DNA of 64,000 nt from a phage. The position numbers were made by a program, and so were the translations under genes. Where the stretch lies: assembly GCA_018296565.1 (NCBI GenBank), contig GCA_018296565.1_3935.1. One strand, 5' to 3'. Positions 3,795-59,100 of the stretch are shown here, piece by piece; position 1 is the stretch's first letter, and each line of letters opens with the position of its first letter. The notes under the pieces were generated by a model. The model had not been told where the DNA came from and searched no databases. It saw only the letters and a list, made by a program, of their open reading frames with translations.

Positions 3795-4580
3795 ATGGGT
3801 ATTGTAAAAATAATCAATGGTGATATCTTTGCCGCATTTGATAAAGGTAAGTTTGACATCATCGGTCACGGTTGCAACTGTATGAATTTAATGGGTGCAG
3901 GTATCGCTGACAAGATTTCTAAACTTTACCCAAAAGCATATGAGACCGATACAGAAGTTTATCTATATGCAGGTGGTATAGGACACAAACCCTGTGAAAA
4001 TTTACTGGGTAATTTCTCTGTAGCACGTTTAAAACAAGGTCGTATAGCTAACCTTTACACTCAGCTTAAGACTGGTAAAGATGCCCGATACAGTGCTTTA
4101 GAGTCATCTTTGAAACAGCTTAACAGATACTGTGAAGTCAATCAGTTGAAGAAAGTCGGGTTACCTATGATTGGTGCAGGTATCGGTGGGCTAGACCCTC
4201 AAGCCGTCACAGTTATCATTAATCAGGTGATGAAGAGTGTAGATGTTTATCTATATGTCTATGAAGGAGAGATGTACCACAAGTTACGCTCAGGTTGGAA
4301 GAACTACTGTGAACCAGAATACTTTGCAGGTGTAGTTGTGTTCACGGATAATGCAGTTACCCTCTTCAGACGAAGAAAAGGTAAGATACATCAAAGTAAC
4401 CCTCCGGTTGAAAAGATGTCTCTAAGTAACGCTCTAGTTACCCACCTGTCAAAGAGCAATCACAGAATTGCTGTAACATTTGGTAGTGATGCAGAAGCTT
4501 ATATCTATGCAAGAACTGATGAGGATATCGAGGCAATCTTCTCTTCACCAGAAGTTACCTTCTTAGACGCAAAGAACTAA
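3795..4580 (+). CDS. macrodomain protein (ADP-ribose processing, TARG1/DarG-like) with C-terminal extension
   Basis: INGDIF...DIIGHGCNCMNLMGAGIADKI and ...GLPMIGAGIGGLDPQ match macrodomain glycine-rich loops as in TARG1-type enzymes. Confidence 0.55.
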   Translation: MGIVKIINGDIFAAFDKGKFDIIGHGCNCMNLMGAGIADKISKLYPKAYETDTEVYLYAGGIGHKPCENLLGNFSVARLKQGRIANLYTQLKTGKDARYSALESSLKQLNRYCEVNQLKKVGLPMIGAGIGGLDPQAVTVIINQVMKSVDVYLYVYEGEMYHKLRSGWKNYCEPEYFAGVVVFTDNAVTLFRRRKGKIHQSNPPVEKMSLSNALVTHLSKSNHRIAVTFGSDAEAYIYARTDEDIEAIFSSPEVTFLDAKN

Positions 4581-4649
4581 GAAACTCTGTAGGATATTCA
4601 CAATAGCCTAAGCCTTTCTTATCTGGTAAATTTTTCAGGTAAGGAGGGC

Positions 4650-4832
4650 TTTTTCATTTCAGAATTGTGCAGGTAGAGTTCTGTAGAGAAATCTGTAGAG
4701 AGAATTTTGAACTCCAAAGAGAAAATTCATTTTCAAACTGTGCAGGTAATCTCCAAAGAGCTTTTTCATTTTCAAAACGTGCAGACTCCGCTCAGGTCGG
4801 GCAAGAAAAATCATTTTAGAATTGTGCAGGTA
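4650..4832 (+). repeat. four spaced copies of motif tttcatttYcaNaaYtgtgcaggta
   Basis: Copies at about 4650, 4726, 4761, 4808; a fifth partial copy follows the terminator at 2271. Confidence 0.6.
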
Positions 4833-5008
4833 GGTTTTTATAGACAGCCAGCCCAACACCTCTCCCCCTCTTACTCCCCCTCTCCCCAAAAGTCAATAGA
4901 AAAATTTGTAGCGGATTGAAAAATAATTCTTGATTTGCGTTCTGTTTTGTGGTAGTCGTGCGCACCCGTTTCATTACAGTTTTGCCAAAAATATTTTTAA
5001 AATTTTTA

Positions 5009-5037
5009 TTGACTCTTTGAACGTGGTTATCTAATAT
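5009..5037 (+). promoter_or_regulatory. sigma70-like promoter
   Basis: TTGACT, 17 nt, TAATAT, just upstream of first leader of the small-gene array. Confidence 0.55.
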
Positions 5038-5100
5038 TTACATCAACGGGGAGGGAATGACCTTCCCCACTAAATAAAATCCTAAACTGGAGATTCAAAA

Positions 5101-5289
5101 ATGGCATCAAGAAAAATTAAAGTTGGCGATGAGGTTAACATTAAGCACGAATACTCTTACAAAATGCTAACTATACGCTCTTATAAGGTTTATCAGGTGG
5201 AAGCTATCCACAAAGATAATACTTTTTCCTTAAAAGGGTATAGCGAACGTTTCCCTGCTGAACTCTTTGAGAAATGGAGCGCGAAATAA
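5101..5289 (+). CDS. hypothetical small protein (cassette gene, type B leader)
   Basis: Conserved leader catcaacggggagggaatgaccttcccc...ctggagattcaaaa then ATG. Confidence 0.65.
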   Translation: MASRKIKVGDEVNIKHEYSYKMLTIRSYKVYQVEAIHKDNTFSLKGYSERFPAELFEKWSAK

Positions 5290-5495
5290 TGCTTTACAGT
5301 CGTGAATTGATGGTTACAACTAACGTTAACACAAAGGTAAAACGTTTTTACATGCAAATTTGTGGCGTATGGTCCAGAATATCAGAAGCCGACTATTGCA
5401 ACTATGTAGAAACGGCTATTAATTCTAATTGCTACCTTACAAGAAACACTAAGAAATTTACAAGGCAGACAGCGATTTACTACTACGACAAATAA
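5289..5495 (+). CDS. hypothetical small protein
   Basis: ATG overlaps upstream stop (TAATG), GGAG 10 nt upstream; ORF track start 5274 is an alternative. Confidence 0.5.
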   Translation: MLYSRELMVTTNVNTKVKRFYMQICGVWSRISEADYCNYVETAINSNCYLTRNTKKFTRQTAIYYYDK

Positions 5496-5583
5496 AGTAC
5501 TTTACAGGGGGCTTAAAAGCTGATATCTTAAGCCCCAGATAAAGAGCTTTACTAAATTAACCCTTAAACTAGGAGATTCAAAA

Positions 5584-5964
5584 ATGGCTTATCGTGCACC
5601 GAAATTCATCAACAAAGACAACTTTCGCAACGCACTGGAGAAGTCACTTGATGAAAATTTTAAAGGTAACATTATCATTGTTCACGCATTCAATTTTAAG
5701 TATGATATTAACGGGAATAAAATCAACCATTACACGGCAACCATGATAGATGGTACTCTATCAAGTGAAAAAGCCATTTTACATGCACTTGCAGGACGTG
5801 GTAAAAACCTGATAAGATGCGATAAGAGACGTTATCAGGGTGGCGCATATGGTTATGATGATGCTGTTTATCATCTTGAAAATATGGGCTATTCAGTGGA
5901 AAAAGCTGGAGTGTCTCAAATAATCGGCAGTGACGGCTATGTGACAATTTTCAAAATTAACTGA
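5584..5964 (+). CDS. hypothetical small protein (cassette gene, type A leader)
   Basis: Preceded by ggggcttaaaag...taagcccc hairpin and ctaggagattcaaaa RBS block. Confidence 0.65.
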   Translation: MAYRAPKFINKDNFRNALEKSLDENFKGNIIIVHAFNFKYDINGNKINHYTATMIDGTLSSEKAILHALAGRGKNLIRCDKRRYQGGAYGYDDAVYHLENMGYSVEKAGVSQIIGSDGYVTIFKIN

Positions 5965-6053
5965 TAAAGTACTTTACAAGGGGCTTATAGTTCGATAAAG
6001 TAAGCCCCAGATAAAGAGCTTTACCACTAAATCCTAAATTGGAGAACTTAAAA

Positions 6054-6347
6054 ATGGCTATTATCAAAAACGTTGTAATTACTGCAAAGACTCGTGATGA
6101 CGCTCGCGTTATGGCTAAAAAGTTATGCGGGAAAGTGGTTGACAATGGAAAACAATCTGCTGTAAGGTGGGGCGTGAAGGTTGATAAACAGTTGAAGTTA
6201 AAAAATTCACCGATAAACCTTTTTACATGTGTAAACACTATCGGGAAGACAAATGTATACACAAAAAAGGCATACATTAGACGCGTAGCATTAACATCCC
6301 CCATTCGTACAATGAGAAGTTACGCAAAGCTGAAAATTAACAAATAA
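6054..6347 (+). CDS. hypothetical small protein (cassette gene, type A leader)
   Basis: ATG at 6054 directly after conserved leader; ORF-track start 6039 is TTG inside the leader. Confidence 0.6.
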   Translation: MAIIKNVVITAKTRDDARVMAKKLCGKVVDNGKQSAVRWGVKVDKQLKLKNSPINLFTCVNTIGKTNVYTKKAYIRRVALTSPIRTMRSYAKLKINK

Positions 6348-6432
6348 AGTACTTTACAAGGGGCTTAAAAGTTGATATCTTAAGCCCCAGATAAAGAGCT
6401 TTACCACTAAATCCTAAACTGGAGATTCAAAA

Positions 6433-6945
6433 ATGAAAACTGTAGACGCTACCTTTGAAGTTGTAAAAGAAAAATTCACAATTATCTATGAAGCGGTAAA
6501 TTGCTACGAGTCAAGCCATAATCTTGACAATTGGGAGTTTACAGACGCCCATCAGGGCGGCGTGACTATTAAAAACCCCAACTGTCAGCGTAACGATTTT
6601 AAATATGCAATCCCTTTAAATTATAGCCTTAAACAGCTTTCTAGTGACTATGCAAAACAAGGCCGGGAAAACCCATCAAAAGGGGCTTACACCAGCTTAC
6701 AGAAAGAACTAGAAAGAGATTTAGAGGCTTCAGAATACAACCTTGCCGCGAAAGTTGTGGATGCAAACGGTAACACGGTTTTAGAAAGTTTTTATCTTGG
6801 CTATGCTTTCGATTGGTGCTATCGTGACGGCGATGATTTAGAGGATAGACTAAAAGAAGAGGTGAATAATTCAGACGCAGAATCTGAAGTATTAGAACGT
6901 TTGGAATCGTTGAAAGACTCAGTGATGAATATCTTTAAGAACTAA
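6433..6945 (+). CDS. hypothetical acidic protein (cassette gene, type A leader)
   Basis: Conserved leader plus RBS; 170 aa. Confidence 0.65.
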   Translation: MKTVDATFEVVKEKFTIIYEAVNCYESSHNLDNWEFTDAHQGGVTIKNPNCQRNDFKYAIPLNYSLKQLSSDYAKQGRENPSKGAYTSLQKELERDLEASEYNLAAKVVDANGNTVLESFYLGYAFDWCYRDGDDLEDRLKEEVNNSDAESEVLERLESLKDSVMNIFKN

Positions 6946-7036
6946 ATAGATTTCTTTACACGGGGTTATCAAACTGGTATGATAGCCCCAGATAAAGAGA
7001 TTTATCAAATTAACCCTTAAACTAGGAGATTCAAAA

Positions 7037-7333
7037 ATGAAATTATCAAATAAAGTTAGGGAAAATCTAAGCAAGTTACTCAACAAAATTGATTTTATCG
7101 AGACCTCAAGAAATACTCATGAGGTTATGGAATGGTTACACGGCAAAATAAAAGGCCGTCGTGTAGTGATTTGCTTATGGAATAGTTGCAGGGAGTATAA
7201 AAAGTCTGTATTGCAAATTAATGTTTATGATGATACTTGTAAAAGTCCTGTTAAGTCTGAAAGTGATTTACTAGATTCTTATGAGATAACTGTAAATGGC
7301 AAAGTGTCACGTAAAGAGGAAGCACTATGTTAA
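7037..7333 (+). CDS. hypothetical small protein (cassette gene, variant type A leader)
   Basis: Leader hairpin ggggttatc...gatagcccc with compensatory changes. Confidence 0.6.
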   Translation: MKLSNKVRENLSKLLNKIDFIETSRNTHEVMEWLHGKIKGRRVVICLWNSCREYKKSVLQINVYDDTCKSPVKSESDLLDSYEITVNGKVSRKEEALC

Positions 7334-7659
7334 TGATGGGTATCACTGCAATCATTGCTATTATGGCGCTATATAAGGCGTACAGCGCCTACAATCTGGC
7401 AAGTAAGGCAATCACGCAACAGGTCAATAATAGCCTTGTAATGAGTTTTCTGGAGCGTTTAAGTGATGAACAAATAAAACGGTTAGAAATGAGCTTCAGA
7501 TTTCAATCAAAAACTTATCAAATCAGCGACATTTTCAAAGATAATTTTCAGCTTGTCGATGATTATAACTCTCTGATAAATGCTTTAAATATCAGTGACT
7601 TAAAAGACTATTACACTGTAATTGTCCAAGAACTGAACAAACGAAAAAATTTCTCTTGA
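7327..7659 (+). CDS. hypothetical protein with N-terminal hydrophobic segment
   Basis: MLMMGITAIIAIMALY hydrophobic N-terminus; overlaps upstream stop. Confidence 0.5.
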   Translation: MLMMGITAIIAIMALYKAYSAYNLASKAITQQVNNSLVMSFLERLSDEQIKRLEMSFRFQSKTYQISDIFKDNFQLVDDYNSLINALNISDLKDYYTVIVQELNKRKNFS

Positions 7660-7749
7660 TTTTAGTTTTAAAAACAAGTAAATTACTAATCAACGGGGAG
7701 GGAATGACCTTCCCCACTAAGTAAAGTCCTTAAACTAGGAGATTCAAAA

Positions 7750-8022
7750 ATGTACACTACTAACAACGGTCGCACCTTAAACGTAACCCTACGCCACTAT
7801 GTGAACGGTGTAATGCACTTCGAGGATTTACAAGCTGAACAGCACATTTTGGATTGGCAACTTGCAGGATTCCAAAAAACTGCTACCGGATACGGGAAAA
7901 AGATTCCAACTAGCTGGAAAGTATACTACGAAGGCCGTTTGCGTAGAATTTATCAAGATGTATGCGGCAATAGCGCATCAAGTTACGTCATAGTAAAAGG
8001 CAAAAAGCTGCATTTAGCATAA
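7750..8022 (+). CDS. hypothetical small protein (cassette gene, type B leader)
   Basis: Conserved leader plus RBS. Confidence 0.65.
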   Translation: MYTTNNGRTLNVTLRHYVNGVMHFEDLQAEQHILDWQLAGFQKTATGYGKKIPTSWKVYYEGRLRRIYQDVCGNSASSYVIVKGKKLHLA

Positions 8023-8107
8023 AGTACTTTACAAGGGGCTTATAGTTCGATAAAGTAAGCCCCAGATAAAGAGCTTTACCACTAAATCCTAAACTGGAGA
8101 TTCAAAA

Positions 8108-8512
8108 ATGGCTATTAATAATCGTGAGTTATCTATCTTAAAAGCACGTTTGACCGTCAACCGGATTAATGTTATCACATCATCAGCACCAGATGAAACA
8201 CTGCAAAACATTATCGGAAAGATTCAAAGCGTTATTTTAGACGTTGAAAACGTAAAAAATTCATTGGCTGACGTTGCAGCAGGTATCACACTAGACGGTG
8301 CGCAATATGAAATGTCCGACATGTTAGGCAAATCTAAGGTAATGAATAAAGAGTTAGATTTGAAAATGTTCCGATTTGCTGTTAAAGTGTGGCTATCTGT
8401 CGAGTATGATGCTAACTTTGCAATCGCTGACTTTTTCGCCACTTGGTTGCAGCGTAATTTGACTAATCATGACTTCCGCGATATCTGTGATGCAATTTAT
8501 GCAGAACTCTAA
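8108..8512 (+). CDS. hypothetical small protein (cassette gene, type A leader)
   Basis: Conserved leader plus RBS. Confidence 0.65.
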   Translation: MAINNRELSILKARLTVNRINVITSSAPDETLQNIIGKIQSVILDVENVKNSLADVAAGITLDGAQYEMSDMLGKSKVMNKELDLKMFRFAVKVWLSVEYDANFAIADFFATWLQRNLTNHDFRDICDAIYAEL

Positions 8513-8521
8513 AAAATTTTG

Positions 8522-8550
8522 TTGACACTGGTTTTTAGATAGATTAAATT
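8522..8550 (+). promoter_or_regulatory. sigma70-like promoter candidate
   Basis: TTGACA, 17 nt, TAAATT upstream of type B leader. Confidence 0.45.
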
Positions 8551-8613
8551 ACACATCAACGGGGAGGGAATGACCTTCCCCACTAAATAAAGTCCTAAAC
8601 TGGAGATTCTAAA

Positions 8614-8811
8614 ATGGCTATTATTAACGGCTTAACCATTGAAACTACACACATCAAAGATATCAAAGTTGGCGATATAGTCCTTTCCCACGGCGTAGAA
8701 AAAACTGTCACTGCAAAGGATATCAAAGAGGATTCTTTCATGGGTAGGACTCTCTTCGGTGATTCTTATTGCTTAGGTTATCTTGCAGTTTTAAAAGTTG
8801 TCAAAAATTAA
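8614..8811 (+). CDS. hypothetical small protein (cassette gene, type B leader)
   Basis: Conserved leader plus RBS. Confidence 0.6.
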   Translation: MAIINGLTIETTHIKDIKVGDIVLSHGVEKTVTAKDIKEDSFMGRTLFGDSYCLGYLAVLKVVKN

Positions 8812-8902
8812 CAAATAAAGTACTTTACAAGGGGCTTAAAAGTTGATATCTTAAGCCCCAGATAAAGAGCTTTACACAGTCCTTAAACTAGGAGATTAAA
8901 AA

Positions 8903-9151
8903 ATGATGAACTATTTCAATATCCCTGATACCTGCCGACTATTGACACAAGAAGAAAACTTGGGTAAACCTTTTCTTTACCACATGCCAGACAACACACC
9001 AAAAACTTATAGTTACAATGTCAACCGTTTTACCGCATACGCTGCAAAGAACGGTTATAAGTTGGTCACTCAAAAAGTAATGCTGGTTACAACCGCTGAC
9101 GAGATTCCTACAGTTGCAGTTAAACTAATTTTCTCAAAAAAAGTTAAATAA
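8903..9151 (+). CDS. hypothetical small protein (cassette gene, type A leader)
   Basis: Conserved leader plus RBS. Confidence 0.6.
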   Translation: MMNYFNIPDTCRLLTQEENLGKPFLYHMPDNTPKTYSYNVNRFTAYAAKNGYKLVTQKVMLVTTADEIPTVAVKLIFSKKVK

Positions 9152-9236
9152 AGTACTTTACAAGGGGTTTATAGTTCGATAAAGTAAGCCCCAGATAAAG
9201 AGCTTTACCACTAAATCCTAAACTGGAGATTCAAAA

Positions 9237-9800
9237 ATGAAATGCTATCACGGCACTACTCTGAAAAACTTTGTAAACTTACTGAATGGTGGCGACAAGC
9301 CGGAAGGAATCTGGAACTGCTCCTACATGGATGATTGTTTCTACGTTTACCCAATGAACAAGGTTATCAAAACGGAATGTCTGGAAGATGAGGAAGATTC
9401 TTATATCCGTGAACGCTGCATTCAAAGCGCCTTAGAGTCTGGGCTTATTACGGCAGCTTTCCAAATGGAAACGCAGGAAGTGATTGTTATCGAAATGGAT
9501 ATCCCAGAGGAAGAACTTGAGGACGATTATTCTTGTGACAACATGAGCGAAATTGCCAGCTTTACCGGATACTTTGATAAGAATTGGATTATCGGCATAC
9601 ACTCGACGAAATTTAGTGCGATGTATGCACCTTTCTTTGTACCAGATGCAACTAACCGCAATTTAGGCTATGTTGACGATGATTTGTTAAGTATGGCGAA
9701 AATTGTACAGAATAGCGGTGACAGTTCCGTGTTTTGTGACTTGCTGGATAAAATCACGGCAAACATCACAGAGCGCAATTTAAAAGACTTTTTAGGTTAA
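9237..9800 (+). CDS. hypothetical acidic protein (cassette gene, type A leader)
   Basis: Conserved leader plus RBS; 187 aa. Confidence 0.65.
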   Translation: MKCYHGTTLKNFVNLLNGGDKPEGIWNCSYMDDCFYVYPMNKVIKTECLEDEEDSYIRERCIQSALESGLITAAFQMETQEVIVIEMDIPEEELEDDYSCDNMSEIASFTGYFDKNWIIGIHSTKFSAMYAPFFVPDATNRNLGYVDDDLLSMAKIVQNSGDSSVFCDLLDKITANITERNLKDFLG

Positions 9801-9863
9801 TCAGTACAAAGACACCAACTTCCAACTTAAGGCCCATACAGGGCCATTTAAAGGGCTTAAATC

Positions 9864-10097
9864 ATGCTTACAACCGTTTATCTTATCCTTTCTATTTGTA
9901 ATGGTCATTCATGTGATTTTAAAGGGCTTGAGGAGTTTACAGGGAGTAAAGAAAATGCTATTCAAGTTTGCCAGATAGCAAGACAAGACTATCCCGCCAG
10001 TGATGATATTCAATGCTACTTTAAGACAGAAGATGAAGACGGCGTCTATTTTGACAGTGTCGATGGTCAATATGAAATTATCATTGAAAAAGACTAG
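9864..10097 (+). CDS. hypothetical small protein
   Basis: ORF preceded by a different hairpin ggcccatacagggcc; no conserved leader. Confidence 0.5.
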   Translation: MLTTVYLILSICNGHSCDFKGLEEFTGSKENAIQVCQIARQDYPASDDIQCYFKTEDEDGVYFDSVDGQYEIIIEKD

Positions 10098-10187
10098 ACA
10101 AGCCTGATAAAAATCTGTAAATTGTCAATCAACGGGGAGGGAATGACCTTCCCCACTAAATAAAGTCCTAAACTGGAGATTCTAAAA

Positions 10188-10529
10188 ATGGCTTATGTAA
10201 CCGTAATTACCGATAAAGCTGGCGCATCTTGGTCAACTCAGGTCAGTGATAAGATGTCACCTATGCAGTGCCTAAAATACTTTGAACAGTGGAATAAAGG
10301 CGAGGACACAAGCCCCTTTCAAGTGATGCAGATTATCCATGTAGACAACGAAGGGAATAAAACGACGCTGAATAGTGAGTACTATGCAAGCCGTTTTGAA
10401 ACGAGAAGTAAAACAATGAAACTTTTACGTGAATCCGGTTATACCCATATCGCCGCGTTAATCTGGGATGACCTGCTAAAAAGTCAGCGTATCAGCTATG
10501 TAAAACCTGAAAAAATATTCATCAGTTAA
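10188..10529 (+). CDS. hypothetical small protein (cassette gene, type B leader)
   Basis: Conserved leader plus RBS. Confidence 0.65.
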   Translation: MAYVTVITDKAGASWSTQVSDKMSPMQCLKYFEQWNKGEDTSPFQVMQIIHVDNEGNKTTLNSEYYASRFETRSKTMKLLRESGYTHIAALIWDDLLKSQRISYVKPEKIFIS

Positions 10530-10561
10530 TCAATAACTTACAAAAAACTTTTAAAAAGATG

Positions 10562-10590
10562 TTGACAACCCCTCTTGACATTGGTAACTT
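10562..10590 (+). promoter_or_regulatory. sigma70-like promoter candidate (tandem TTGACA boxes)
   Basis: Two TTGACA hexamers; TAACTT 17 nt after the first. Confidence 0.35.
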
Positions 10591-10751
10591 TGTTCGAGGG
10601 GGTTTATCTAAAAGGGATTAACTTAAAAGATTCTTTATAGATAGATTTAAAAAATTGCTTGCAATCAGATATCAAAACAAGTAAATTACTCATCAACGGG
10701 GAGGCAATAACCTCCCTACTAAGTAAAGTCCTTAAACTAGGAGATTCTAAA

Positions 10752-11282
10752 ATGAACAAGTTCAAAGCTATCAACTATATTCGTTCAAATAATGTAATGG
10801 CTAAGCCTGTTAAAGATACCTATGAATTTCGTTGTAATGGGGTACACTTTGCAACCATTACCAAATCAGAAAACGGGGCTTATTACGTTCATCGTCGTAA
10901 TGTTGCAACCGTTGTAGTCTCTCACTTTATGCAAGCTGTCGCGGAACTTCTCCCGATGTTTTTAGGTCTTTATTTAGATGAGTGTAAAAACGTTCACAGC
11001 CACGTTAAAAACCTTTTAAATAGCTATAAAATGGCTTATGAACGTTCTATCAAGTCCTTAAACAAGTTTTACAACGCACCTAAAAATACTGTATCAATAG
11101 CCTATGCTGCAAATGGTGAGATGGTAAACTTATCCAATGTGGAAGAAATCAAGCTGCATGATTTACGCCCTAGCGGTTACTCTAAGACTCTCGGTGAAGG
11201 TTTAACGTTCAATATCAAGAACTTAGAGAAAACTTTAAAAGATATTGAAAAAGATATTGACGAGACAACCAAAAGTCTGTAA
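10752..11282 (+). CDS. hypothetical protein (cassette gene, variant type B leader)
   Basis: ATG at 10752 directly after leader; ORF-track start 10659 lies inside the leader. Confidence 0.6.
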   Translation: MNKFKAINYIRSNNVMAKPVKDTYEFRCNGVHFATITKSENGAYYVHRRNVATVVVSHFMQAVAELLPMFLGLYLDECKNVHSHVKNLLNSYKMAYERSIKSLNKFYNAPKNTVSIAYAANGEMVNLSNVEEIKLHDLRPSGYSKTLGEGLTFNIKNLEKTLKDIEKDIDETTKSL

Positions 11283-11347
11283 ATTGTCAATCAACGGGGA
11301 GGGAATGACCTTCCCCACTAAATAAAATCCTAAACTGGAGATTCAAA

Positions 11348-11611
11348 ATGGAACACGTCGAACTGACCACACTTTTACAAATTGCAACCGACAAAGAGGA
11401 TGTAGCATTATTCCATCGTATCGAGAGTGATTTGTTCAATGGTGAAATCATTAAAGAGTCTTACGAAGTTGTCGGATTCAAAGACGGTAAAGCGTTCGGA
11501 TTCTTTGACCTCGACAAAGGCAAAGCGGTTACAAAATATGATGTTTTATCTTGTGAGATTCTGACAAAATACAACGAAAAAAGACTTGCAACATACGCCA
11601 ATATGCAGTAA
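11348..11611 (+). CDS. hypothetical small protein (cassette gene, type B leader)
   Basis: Conserved leader plus RBS. Confidence 0.65.
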   Translation: MEHVELTTLLQIATDKEDVALFHRIESDLFNGEIIKESYEVVGFKDGKAFGFFDLDKGKAVTKYDVLSCEILTKYNEKRLATYANMQ

Positions 11612-11688
11612 ATTACTAATCAACGGGAGGGACAACCTCCCTACTAAGTAAAGTCCTTAAACTACTTCCTAAACTGGAGATTCTAAAA

Positions 11689-11937
11689 ATGGCAACTATC
11701 CGCGCAACTGTCAATGCTTATGGCTGTTATACTCTGGACGTTAAATTTGATATTAGTGGAACTGATGAGTGTTTTTCATTAGTGAAGACAGTTATCAAGC
11801 AAGTTATCCCAGATTATAACCCTACTGATGACTTCTGGAAAGATGCTGTAAAAGAGGCATTAAACGACGAGCATCACTATCATTACTGGGGTGACTTGAT
11901 TGTCTCACTGTACTACAATAAACAAGGTTACAACTAA
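11689..11937 (+). CDS. hypothetical small protein (cassette gene, variant type B leader)
   Basis: Conserved leader plus RBS. Confidence 0.6.
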   Translation: MATIRATVNAYGCYTLDVKFDISGTDECFSLVKTVIKQVIPDYNPTDDFWKDAVKEALNDEHHYHYWGDLIVSLYYNKQGYN

Positions 11938-11947
11938 TCGACGCAAC

Positions 11948-12000
11948 GGGGCTAAATAGCCCCAGATACCTGAAAAGCTCCTTCTCATAGGGGCTTTTTT
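11948..12000 (+). terminator. terminator-like hairpins with T-run ending the plus-strand small-gene array
   Basis: ggggctaaatagcccc hairpin, then ...ggggc followed by TTTTTT. Confidence 0.5.
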
Positions 12001-12027
12001 ACGTCTATGTAATAGCCTCTATACAAT

Positions 12028-12050
12028 CCCTTTCCTTTCCTTTCCTTTCC
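12028..12050. repeat. microsatellite (CTTTC)x4
   Basis: ccctttcctttcctttcctttcc. Confidence 0.8.
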
Positions 12051-12419
12051 AGAATCTATCCCACTAATTCGATAGAATCTATCTCATACCTTAAAAGCAA
12101 TAACTCTATAGTCTACTCTATAACCTCTTATCAAATCAACTTAAATAAAAGCCCATAACCCGAAAGGGAAGGGCAACCGTTTAAACGCTCTATAAAGCTC
12201 TATAACAGCCTTATCAACCTAACTTAAGGGATTGCATTAACTCACCCTAAAAAGCTCTTTATAAAGCTTCCTAGAGCCTTAAAAGAATCTTATAAGGGTG
12301 TAAGCTTTATCATCTCGTTAGCTATCTTGTGAATATCTAAAAAGGGCTTGTTATTGTCTTAAAAGTATGTTATATGGGCTTTAAAGTTACTTTGAAGTAG
12401 CTTAAAAGTTACGTAAATG

Positions 12420-13510
12420 CTAGCCCCCTTAACATTTTCTTAACAATTTCTTAACAAACCCTACATAGTTATGCTTTTAAGGCACTTGTTAGCAACTTGT
12501 TAGTCCCTTGTTAAATCTCTGTTAAGACCACGTAAAAGCCTTGTAAGAGTCTTTGACATAGCCTTTAAAGCCCCTGTAAAGCCCTATAAAGAGGTATCTG
12601 TACAGTTGGGGGGTAGATACTAGGAAGAGACTTAAAAGAGCTTACAAGGAGCTATAGAGAGCTTTTAAGAGGTATGTTTAAAGAATCACTAAGAAAGGAA
12701 AGGGAACGATAAGAAAAGAGATAGTGACCATGTTAATAGCTTGTTAAAAAGATTAAACACTTGTTAGAGACTTGTTAATTATCTTAACAAAATAACTCTT
12801 AAAAATTAACTTGTTAGCTCTTGTTAGCCATCTGTTAAGACTCTGTAAAGCCTATGTATCAACTGTTAAGAAACTGTTACGCTCTTGTTAGTTCTGTTGA
12901 GAATCTGTTAAGACCTTTGAAGAGATGTTAAGGAGATGTGAGAACTGTTAAGAGATTGTTAAGGATATTTTAAAATTTTGCAAAGTACTTGTAAGGGAGC
13001 TGTTAAGGGCTACCAAGCAGATATACATCTTCTACAGATATTTTTCAGTTCCTTCAAAGACCCTAAAAAATGACTTGATAGTCCTATTTTATAAAAATTT
13101 TAAAAATCTGAATAATTACCTATACAGTCTTTCTAAAATACAGGTAATAACAGGCTTATAAGATACCTTGTTAGTACCGTGTTAGACCTTGTGAGATAAG
13201 GTCTGTAAAGATATTCCTGTTAAGTTTGTTAAAACAGTCTATATAGAGGCTTAGTAATACCTAGTGAACACCTATAGAGAGTGTCATAGCTAACCTAGAG
13301 ATTAAGAGGTGTATAGGAGCTTCTAAGAGGGTATAGAAAGATGGTTAAGGTGATTGTATAGGTTGTTAAGAAGGCTTGTTAGAGGGCTTGTTAGAAGGGT
13401 TATACAGAGGGCTATTAAGACCACTAGATAGATACTAAGAGACTATATAGTACTATATAACTATATATAGAGAGTAAGCTTAAGAAGGTTGTTAAGAAGG
13501 GTAGATATTT
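12420..13510. repeat. dense array of short iterated motifs (YTGTTAR and reverse complement CTTAACA), non-coding
   Basis: Dozens of cttgttag / ctgttaag / gttgttaag copies, often 10-12 nt apart; no ORF of 60 aa or more in the block. Confidence 0.7.
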
Positions 13511-13604
13511 TGTTCACATATGATGGTGACCCAGAGGTTGGGACAACCGATAAAAATTTTATAAAAATTAAAAAGCCCCCAATTAAGGAGGCTCTTAAGA
13601 TATT

Positions 13605-57339: not shown

Positions 57340-57600
57340 AAGGCTACTGCCATCCTTCCATACCAAACCGTTCCCAACCCAACCCTACAGCACCGAGCCA
57401 AACCCTACCGAACCGTGCCTAACCTGACCTAACCGTACCTTACCAAACATCGCTTAAAAACCCTCTTAGAAGACGCTTAAGTGATGTAATCGAATTTTAA
57501 TGTAGCTCCGATTAACTACCCATACCTGACCTAACCTGACCTAACCGAACCGAACCAAACCCTACCCCGCCTCACTGTACCTCATTAAAAGACCCTGTTT
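57340..57600. repeat. strand-biased ACC-rich short-repeat block R1 with conserved hairpin motif
   Basis: Plus strand nearly devoid of G over more than 100 nt (ccaaacc, ctaacc, tgacc units); shares three sequence modules with R2. Confidence 0.65.
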
Positions 57601-57610
57601 AAAGACCTTT

Positions 57611-57634
57611 TAAAAAGGAGCCTCCGAAGAGGCT
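57611..57634 (-). terminator. terminator-like hairpin (minus strand) downstream of the 57646-58086 gene
   Basis: agcctccgaagaggct hairpin followed by T-run on minus strand. Confidence 0.45.
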
Positions 57635-58739: not shown

Positions 58740-59100
58740 TCTTTAGAAACTTGGTAGATTTTTAATGTGGCTACTACCATCCACCCATACCAGACCTAAC
58801 TACACCTCACCCCACCTGACCCATACCTCGCATTACCATACCAAACCAGACCCTACCTCATTAAAAAACCCTCTTAAAGACCTTTTAAAAAGGTAAGTCT
58901 CATTTTAATGTAGCTGAGACTAACTACCCGCACTTTACCGCACCGGACCTTACCGGACCGCACATCACCGCACTAAACCAGACATCACATTACCTGACCA
59001 CACCAAACCAAACATCACATTACTTAAAAACCCTCTTAGAAGACTCTTAAGTGATGCTGGTGAGTACCCGTTGGTTTATGCTGCTCAGTATACTCACCAA
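58740..59100. repeat. strand-biased ACC-rich short-repeat block R2, paralogous to R1
   Basis: Shares ttttaatgtagct hairpin loop, cattaaaa.accct.ttaaagaccttttaaaaagg and aaaaccctcttagaagac.cttaagtgatg modules with R1. Confidence 0.65.

Follow-up and report, generated by a model that had tools for sequence, protein, structure and literature searches.

Promoter and stem-loop cassettes with a conserved plus-strand hairpin in the early-gene block of a Felix O1-like phage

The phage contig GCA_018296565.1_3935.1, of which we analyzed a stretch of 64,000 nucleotides (hereafter the window), carries short G-run/C-run hairpins in front of a series of small genes, most of them between positions 6,946 and 11,688. 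This raises the question of what these hairpins do and on which RNA they would act. A preliminary description had regarded them as leader hairpins with compensatory base changes, placed directly upstream of each Shine-Dalgarno (SD) sequence and serving, for example, as a nuclease processing site or to bind a translational regulator. Judged by sequence identity, the window is the genome of a Felixounavirus (Felix O1-like phage), with the region from 6900 to 11700 being 94.8% identical to the Escherichia phages EF202P1 and VpaE1 and matching 253 Felix O1-like records. Our analysis places each hairpin within a larger repeated cassette and shows, from the pattern of substitutions, that selection on plus-strand structure has conserved the hairpin. 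As a whole, the cassettes probably are composite regulatory units of the promoter-early stem-loop (PeSL) type, that is, a further example of the PeSLs known from T4-like phages and not a new kind of leader-RNA regulator.

Anatomy of the fourteen cassettes

Repeat finding combined with a scan for the ribosome-site module revealed 14 intergenic cassettes of ~90 nt each, seven of type A and seven of type B, all located on the plus strand between 5023 and 11691. Each stands before a small gene of unknown function, and nearly all small early genes of the region have one. Together they form a ~7-kb gene-shuffling region within the plus-strand block downstream of rIIB; all 10 cassette-driven open reading frames tested fell into PHROG families of unknown function. 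Paralogous cassettes are 92-100% identical and the genes flanking them are unrelated. Four parts recur in every cassette: an A-rich upstream stretch, a predicted strong host promoter of the sigma-70 type, the G-run/C-run stem-loop, and a standard translation start. Type A follows the layout TTTACA, 17 nt, TAnnnT, 6-7 nt, and then AGATAAAG, type B the layout TTGnnn, 17 nt, TAAATT (TAATAT at 5009), ~10 nt, and the hairpin. The SD/start module TAAACT(A)GGAGATTCAAAAATG is present in 14 of 14 cassettes. A promoter consensus scan called seven of seven type A and five of seven type B promoters, all with a 17-nt spacer, and type B promoters outside the scan calls (7656, 10659/11586) were read directly from the sequence. 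All promoters are sequence predictions, with the transcription start (+1) placed by the usual 7-nt rule of thumb. The cassettes are given below in order of position; z scores refer to dinucleotide shuffles.

5009..5103, plus strand: type B cassette 1; TTGACT-N17-TAATAT 5009-5037, hairpin 5048-5068, shared SD module, ATG 5101.
5487..5586, plus strand: type A cassette 1; -35 box TTTACA 5501-5506, -10 box TATCTT to 5529, upper stem 5508-5536, full three-tier hairpin 5493-5551 (-21.9 kcal/mol, z -4.4), ATG 5584.
5959..6056, plus strand: type A cassette 2; -35 box 5973, -10 box TAAAGT to 6001, upper stem 5980-6008, full hairpin 5965-6023 (z -4.3), ATG 6054.
6339..6435, plus strand: type A cassette 3; -35 box 6353, -10 box TATCTT to 6381, upper stem 6360-6388, full hairpin 6345-6403 (z -4.7), ATG 6433.
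6941..7039, plus strand: type A cassette 4, the variant singled out in the preliminary description; -35 box 6955-6960, -10 box TATGAT to 6983, 6-nt discriminator, upper stem GGGGTTATC/GATAGCCCC 6962-6989, contiguous 13-bp lower helix, full hairpin 6946-7005 (-27.1 kcal/mol, z -7.0), ATG 7037.
7656..7752, plus strand: type B cassette 2; TTGATT 7656-7661, N17, TAAATT 7679-7684, hairpin 7695-7715, ATG 7750.
8014..8110, plus strand: type A cassette 5; -35 box 8028, -10 box TAAAGT to 8056, upper stem 8035-8063, full hairpin 8020-8078, ATG 8108.
8522..8616, plus strand: type B cassette 3; TTGACA-N17-TAAATT 8522-8550 (promoter annotated in AYO145A), hairpin 8561-8581, ATG 8614.
8810..8905, plus strand: type A cassette 6; -35 box 8824, -10 box TATCTT to 8852, upper stem 8831-8859, full hairpin 8816-8874, ATG 8903.
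9143..9239, plus strand: type A cassette 7; -35 box 9157, -10 box TAAAGT to 9185, upper stem GGGGTTTAT/GTAAGCCCC 9164-9192 with a mid-stem U.G, full hairpin 9149-9207, ATG 9237.
10095..10190, plus strand: type B cassette 4; TAGACA-N17-TAAATT 10095-10123, hairpin 10134-10154, ATG 10188.
10659..10754, plus strand: type B cassette 5, a variant; TTGCAA 10659, N17, TAAATT 10682-10687, hairpin GGGGAGG-CAATAA-CCTCCCT 10698-10717 (z -3.6), ATG 10752.
11257..11350, plus strand: type B cassette 6; TTGACG-N17-TAAATT 11257-11285, hairpin 11296-11316, ATG 11348.
11586..11691, plus strand: type B cassette 7, a variant; TTGCAA 11586, N17, TAAATT 11609-11614, hairpin GGGAGG-GACAA-CCTCCC 11625-11641 (z -3.4), duplicated SD module 11650-11680, ATG 11689.

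The two types differ in how the hairpin relates to the promoter. The spacer of the type A promoter holds the 5' arm, the -10 box runs from the apical loop into the 3' arm, and the 3' arm is the GC-rich stretch ending at about -1, immediately ahead of the A of AGATAAAG, where transcription is expected to start. Type B hairpins begin ~3 nt past the predicted +1. The notion of simple leaders therefore does not hold, since every cassette includes a sigma-70-type promoter and the type A 3' arm ends upstream of the predicted start. Neither is the hairpin directly upstream of the SD sequence: the gap amounts to ~20-35 nt (20-25 nt in type B), and the two do not pair. Type A stem differences track the -10 hexamers TATCTT, TAAAGT, and TATGAT, a change in the -10 box being accompanied by the matching change in the spacer. 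In a collection made without a promoter filter, the -35 box was invariant (TTTACA in 67 distinct copies), the spacer was 17, occasionally 18 nt, and TAnnnT was kept in all listed distinct true type A copies but one (TAAAGC).

Pairing, covariation and strand

All 14 hairpins fold as predicted, with 0-2 of 200 dinucleotide shuffles folding as well (type A: -19.2 to -27.1 kcal/mol, z -3.8 to -7.0; type B: -12.5 to -15.2 kcal/mol, z -3.0 to -3.65). The full type A structure, obtained with RNAfold on single copies and with RNAalifold on 101 copies, is a ~60-nt three-tier hairpin of 9 + 5 + 6 bp, 20 bp in total, interrupted by 3x3 and 1x1 internal loops. Its lower helix is formed by TAAAGT.CTTTA on the 5' side, which holds the -35 box, and TAAAG.GCTTTA at +4 to +15; above it follow the 3x3 internal loop (CAN/AGA) and, on top, the 9-bp upper stem. 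Directly past the upper stem, in the 3' strand of the internal loop, lies the predicted +1. The independently derived RNAalifold structure is the same except for the innermost three upper-stem pairs and one lower-helix pair, and these coincide with a 1-nt gap that MAFFT set beside the -10 box, inside the 3' arm. Due to this gap, the 19 copies with a six-nt discriminator are mis-registered and their pairing is under-counted; in an arm-anchored count they do pair.

Copies for comparison came from a viral-contig scan and from genomes with annotation in four genera of the Ounavirinae, namely Felixounavirus (AYO145A, KhF3, wV8), Mooglevirus (Michonne, Sf13), Suspvirus (SUSP2), and Kolesnikvirus (Ep030, M7, ST-3). 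The 14-mer scan of the viral contigs returned mostly chance matches, and only contigs with multiple matches were usable. The resulting alignment contained 101 distinct type A copies. Within it, 96.7% of 2001 helix cells were paired in comparison to 92.7% in shuffles, and the covariation score was 0.130 compared with 0.064, neither value being reached by any of 500 shuffles. With slid 3' partners, pairing dropped to 32-56%. Double changes occurred at five type A pairs, distributed over both helices. Pair states at individual columns were as follows.

Type A columns 24-48: GC 91, UA 9.
Type A columns 30-42: AU 30, UG 27, UA 17, GC 4.
Type A columns 11-61: GC 79, UA 13.
Type A columns 7-65: UA 82, AU 4.
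Type A columns 26-46 (mid-stem): CG 56, UG 43, UA 1.

The compensatory changes reported for type A are thus real. Both stems occur as originally quoted, ggggcttaa..ttaagcccc at 5508-5536, 6360-6388, and 8831-8859 and ggggttatc..gatagcccc at 6962-6989. Compared with the 6360 copy (GGGGCTTAA/TTAAGCCCC), the 6962 copy (GGGGTTATC/GATAGCCCC) has both bases exchanged at three neighboring pairs (U-A to A-U, A-U to U-A, A-U to C-G) and one change from C-G to U.G. The changed bases of its 3' arm belong to the -10 hexamer, which turns from TATCTT into TATGAT.

Which strand folds can be read from the mismatches. Among the non-Watson-Crick helix cells of type A, 179 are G.U and only five are A.C or C.A, and the dominant type B stem has a mid-stem G.U as well. 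Since each plus-strand G.U corresponds to an A.C mismatch on the minus strand, this bias favors folding of the plus strand, most simply as RNA, over a cruciform or a palindrome recognized by a protein. This bears on the very unlikely explanation that the inverted repeats act as DNA, either as operator palindromes at which a regulator of phage or host origin shuts off early promoters or as cruciforms or hairpins marking recombination sites. Such a role would agree with the overlap of repeat and promoter core, the palindromic word TAAAG-NN-CTTTA occurring twice in the flanks, the recombination at the cassettes, and the about equally good folding of the minus strand of the common type A copy. However, the arms change jointly without their sequence being conserved, which is not how operators evolve, and the nearly exclusive G.T mismatches on the plus strand, including mid-stem ones, would weaken a cruciform. 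Loops of 4 to 13 nt and stems that differ in sequence between families are a further argument against it.

For type B, the hairpins were found as first described (ggggagggaatgaccttcccc at 5048, 7695, 8561, 10134, and 11296, ggggaggcaataacctccct at 10698-10717, and gggagggacaacctccc at 11625-11641). On compensation a caveat applies: the hairpin is kept in the variants, but those in the window differ mostly by an indel and loop changes rather than by clean double substitutions. Across the wider collection, 89 distinct type B units gave 33 distinct hairpin cores, all of which fold with 4-8 bp right after ..ATCAAC. Examples are GGGGAGGG/CCTTCCCC, GGGAGG/CCTCCC, GGGGAGG-GAAA-CTTCCCC, and GGGGC/GCCCC, as well as GGGGT/GCCCC (with a U.G), GGGA/TCCC, and GGGGAAG/CTTCCCC. 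Hairpin loops range from 4 to 13 nt and stem sequences differ between the cassette families. The Erwinia phages of the genus Kolesnikvirus use the same architecture with different stems, such as GGTGTTTATA/TATAAGCACC, GGGGTTAT/ATAACCCC around the -10 box GATTAT, and GAGGGG-TTAAAAT-CCCCTC with the -10 box in its loop. One Kolesnikvirus cassette, GGGGCT-TTACA-GCCCC followed by TTTTTCGTTTT, forms a true terminator whose loop contains the -35 box. Across families, the hairpin shifts relative to the promoter but always stands after the stop codon of the preceding gene and ahead of the ribosome site of the following one. This fixed position is the main reason to place hairpin action on RNA that crosses the cassette. 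The compensatory and wobble-only changes, the excess of G.U, and the use of different stems at the same position in other genera support selection on plus-strand secondary structure as initially proposed.

An alternative is that the hairpin belongs to the 5' leader of the gene it precedes and acts on that mRNA, either by binding a translational regulator or as a processing signal. Type B hairpins would suit this idea, as they lie downstream of the predicted start and 20-25 nt before the SD sequence, and their AAUGA loop is the same in most Felixounavirus copies. But Mooglevirus has GAAA or GAGA loops instead, and with unrelated stems of 4-8 bp elsewhere, a generic hairpin fits better than a protein site. 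In type A, the 5' arm and the lower helix lie upstream of the predicted +1, so the primary transcript of the gene itself would lack the full hairpin; it is predicted to carry the 3' half only, with the complete hairpin forming exclusively in read-through RNA. The hairpin does not pair with the SD sequence, and an Rfam 15 scan of 4500-12500 on both strands (E up to 1) gave no match. We consider the own-leader explanation quite unlikely, and nothing in the data points to the translational-regulator site suggested earlier.

Read-through transcription and gene exchange

The block holds ~15 promoters. Terminators with a T run flank the block (4610-4661 and 11973-12000) and there is none between them, so RNA polymerases started upstream must cross every downstream cassette. 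Further plus-strand elements of the block are given here.

4610..4661, plus strand: canonical terminator-like site from the terminator scan, just upstream of the cassette block.
10562..10604, plus strand: third kind of promoter-straddling hairpin, read from the sequence with the promoter annotated in AYO145A; TTGACA 10562, N17, TAACTT 10585-10590, with CCCCTC 10569-10574 and GAGGGG 10596-10601 enclosing the -10 box, followed by GTTTATCT.
11948..11968, plus strand: relative of the type A upper stem lacking a promoter, GGGGCT-AAAT-AGCCCC then AGATA, past the last block gene and before the canonical terminator.
11973..12000, plus strand: canonical intrinsic terminator AAAAGCTCCT-TCTCAT-AGGGGCTTTTT closing the cassette block, annotated as terminator in AYO145A.

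The third-kind hairpin and the type B cassette at 10659 form a tandem. A cassette is absent before the gene at 9864, which instead follows a different small hairpin, GGCCC-ATACA-GGGCC at 9836-9850; at the equivalent position, the wV8 record annotates a terminator upstream of the corresponding gene.

On the PeSL-type reading, transcripts initiated at upstream promoters would build up on the distal genes unless dampened. The hairpin would arise in this read-through RNA, past the end of one coding sequence and ahead of the next ribosome site, where it could dampen read-through by pausing or partial termination, leave a 3'-terminal hairpin protecting the upstream message, or both. In type A, the hairpin would straddle the promoter and the cassette's own transcript would begin free of structure. 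In type B, the mRNA of the gene itself would in addition begin with the hairpin as a 5' cap, guarding it against 5'-end-dependent decay. We infer that read-through RNA is attenuated by the hairpin or has its end marked by it and that type B additionally protects the 5' end of its own mRNA.

The hairpins were also considered as intrinsic terminators and this candidate was rejected: none of them is among the terminator-like sites, and a T run follows the hairpin in none of the 14 cassettes, the type A tail being AGAUAAAG and the type B tail ACUAAAUA.

Several points weigh against the PeSL-type reading and its evidence. Strong termination is not expected from hairpins lacking a U tract. Folding energies do not separate the strands of the common type A copy (-22.1 kcal/mol for plus and -25.0 kcal/mol for minus, the latter being about as good), for which reason the case for the plus strand rests on the substitution pattern. 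The copies are recombining paralogues, so per-cell counts are not independent events, and linked changes of the two arms could have been inherited together via recombination instead of being selected separately. The first type A collection demanded a promoter-like context, a condition that was later relaxed. Finally, a literature search retrieved no mapped transcription start, RNA 3' end, or cleavage site for Felix O1-like phages.

As to the nuclease processing proposed in the preliminary description, the extended type A hairpin may be such a site when it forms in RNA reading through the cassette. An RNase III-type cut of the polycistronic RNA near the internal loop would leave a protective 3' hairpin on the upstream message and a downstream 5' end close to that of the promoter. 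The modeled three-tier helix of 9 + 5 + 6 bp, which is conserved and covaries in its upper and lower parts, and the predicted +1 on the 3' side of the internal loop are in line with such a site. On the other hand, an RNase III site calls for ~20 bp of nearly continuous helix, and with their 6-8 bp type B hairpins, like several Kolesnikvirus stems, fall far short of this, hence processing is not the common function. As a yardstick of size, the T7 R1.1, R1, and R1.3 regions were folded, and no clear canonical structure emerged. Taken together, RNase III processing is an unlikely explanation of the type A hairpins.

The cassettes furthermore coincide with sites of gene exchange. We compared the region 4700-12000 with 21 related loci; cassettes plus 15 nt make up 22.6% of it. 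Out of 119 internal ends of homology, 94 lie within 15 nt of a cassette, and the same applies to 23 of 33 distinct breakpoint clusters compared with the 22.6% expected (binomial p = 1.2e-8). Single-gene differences bounded by cassettes were seen at 5105/5551, 6056/6333, 6438/6946, 8906/9131-9148, 10190/11244, and 10754/11608. A footprint of recombination in the window itself is the duplicated ribosome-site module CCTTAAACTA|CTTCCTAAACTGGAGA at 11650-11680, and "empty" cassettes, whose ATG leads directly into the -35 box of the next cassette, occur in Michonne and in one metagenomic contig (loci L124 7418-7504 and L072 near 1175). The positions of these breakpoints show that gene gain and loss between relatives takes place at the cassettes. 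As long, near-identical repeats, the cassettes would double as recombination sites at which single genes are inserted or deleted with their own expression signals.

Such exchange could suggest that the hairpin has no function of its own and is the passenger of a selfish or recombination-driven repeat, given paralogues that are 92-100% identical amid unrelated genes and homology that breaks at the cassettes. Yet pairing is kept through many sequence states and in four genera, with unrelated stems at the same position, and a stem copy lacking a promoter survives at the block end (11948-11968), where it is kept in Felixounavirus and SUSP2 with changes confined to the loop. We regard the passenger explanation as highly improbable.

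Beyond the cassette block, a ~1.6-kb gene-free stretch (11940-13600) is densely filled with CTTGTTA(A/G) / CTGTTAAG words at 11-nt spacing in both orientations. Equivalent gaps exist in Michonne, SUSP2, Sf13, and ST-3. The stretch looks iteron-like and could represent a replication origin or lie near the genome end. The window also contains a tRNA-like repeat cluster at ~24.1-29.6 kb and repeat-rich open reading frames at ~50-53 kb. Two intergenic arrays of C-rich words (57363-57612 and 58759-59050) show a 5-nt periodicity (ACCxx on the plus strand, GGT-rich on the gene strand), both coming after a common ATTTTAATGTAGCT.. motif.

Comparison with known systems

In the early region of phage T7, RNase III processes the mRNAs at irregular hairpins between genes, similar in size to type A, which leaves 3' hairpins on the products. 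The type A structure may be analogous in being irregular, about two helical turns long, and situated between early genes beside promoters, with a 3' hairpin remaining on the upstream message. The analogy is one of size, and type B as well as many other variants are too short for it. A hairpin a few nucleotides from the 5' end, as in the ompA 5' UTR of E. coli, protects against 5'-end-dependent decay by RNase E/RppH; by analogy, this might apply to type B only, whose hairpin is ~3 nt from the predicted 5' end. With intrinsic terminators, the cassettes share a GC-rich stem past a gene, and one Kolesnikvirus cassette is indeed a true terminator, whereas none of the 14 hairpins of the window is followed by a U tract.

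In existing annotations, these units appear under several names. The Felix O1 genome paper lists them as "direct repeats" (PMC3185647), the wV8 record as DR_1 to DR_9, and the AYO145A and KhF3 records annotate them piecemeal as promoters or minus-strand terminators. The KhF3 record assigns the type B hairpins to the minus strand as Rho-independent terminators, although on that strand the conserved G.U pairs become A.C; these calls are probably mis-annotations. Our literature search found no description of the Felix O1-like repeats as regulatory or PeSL-like, the only mention being the "direct repeats" (PMC3185647), with nothing in the wV8 paper. The cassette model offers an explanation of both the Felix O1 "direct repeats" and DR_1 to DR_9 of wV8. 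For the ~290 Felix O1-like genomes, many of them from phage therapy or biocontrol candidates, it provides an annotation rule by which early promoters can be placed and minus-strand terminator calls on the hairpins avoided. It also shows single early genes being gained and lost as ready-to-express modules.

The closest known counterpart are the PeSLs, which were defined in the T4-like phages RB49/phi1, T4/PST, and KVP40/nt-1 as motifs that recur between the genes of hyperplastic regions (Arbiol et al. 2010, PMC2839356; Comeau et al. 2014, PMC4122927). According to these papers, a PeSL combines an A/T-rich stretch and a sigma-70 promoter with a G-run/C-run stem-loop that includes G-T pairs and lies in the space separating the -35 box from the -10 box, over either box, or after the -10 box. 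It ends in an SD sequence and ATG at the 3' end and is associated with indels. For chosen PeSLs, promoter and terminator/attenuator activity was measured and mini-circles were detected (PMC2839356, PMC4122927).

Direct sequence relatedness between the two groups was searched for as well. By blastn, no Felix cassette matched T4-like phages, and an RB49 PeSL matched Kolesnikvirus only at E ~0.9. An RB49 PeSL also matched, weakly, leaders found in T1-like, Karamvirus, and Yersinia phages. Between the PeSLs of RB49 and the cassettes of the Ounavirinae, 28 12-mers are in common compared with 1.4 (maximum 7) in shuffles, and words of 17-19 nt are common to both; those from the start region and ribosome site include AAAAGTAGTTGACACTGAA, CCCCATCGAAACGAAACAA, and CTGGAGAATCAA. 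The common words may reflect exchange or convergence on strong signals. A more far-reaching proposal would see promoter/stem-loop cassettes as an exchangeable regulatory module of many unrelated virulent phages of enterobacteria (the T4-like Krischvirus, the four Ounavirinae genera, and possibly T1-like and other phages), for whose exchange the common words would be evidence, with a cut at the type A internal loop giving a promoter-like 5' end and, for each gene, a uniform leader. We deem this combination rather unlikely.

All five sequence-level PeSL features are present in the cassettes of the window. They are repeated units in a shuffling region of small genes of unknown function, and they contain an A/T-rich stretch and a sigma-70-like promoter, whose 17-nt spacer lies within the 16-18 nt used for PeSLs. 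A G-run/C-run stem-loop with G-T pairs overlaps or adjoins this promoter (around the -10 box in type A, after it in type B), an SD sequence and start codon form the 3' end, and indels among close relatives are bounded by the units. The PeSL upstream of ORF227 in RB49 has the type A layout, with TTGACA-N17-TAAGAT and a stem GGGGGTA/TACTCCC around the -10 box that ends just before ATCGAAAC. Differences concern the lineage, with Ounavirinae for the cassettes and Straboviridae for the PeSLs, and the position of the type B hairpin after the predicted start. The type A hairpin is longer, has three tiers, and takes in the -35 box and +4 to +15, an extension that does not appear in the PeSL papers. 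With these cassettes, the PeSL concept would reach beyond T4-like phages, and their many sequence states would make them a natural test system for the effect of a promoter-embedded hairpin on read-through transcription and mRNA stability.

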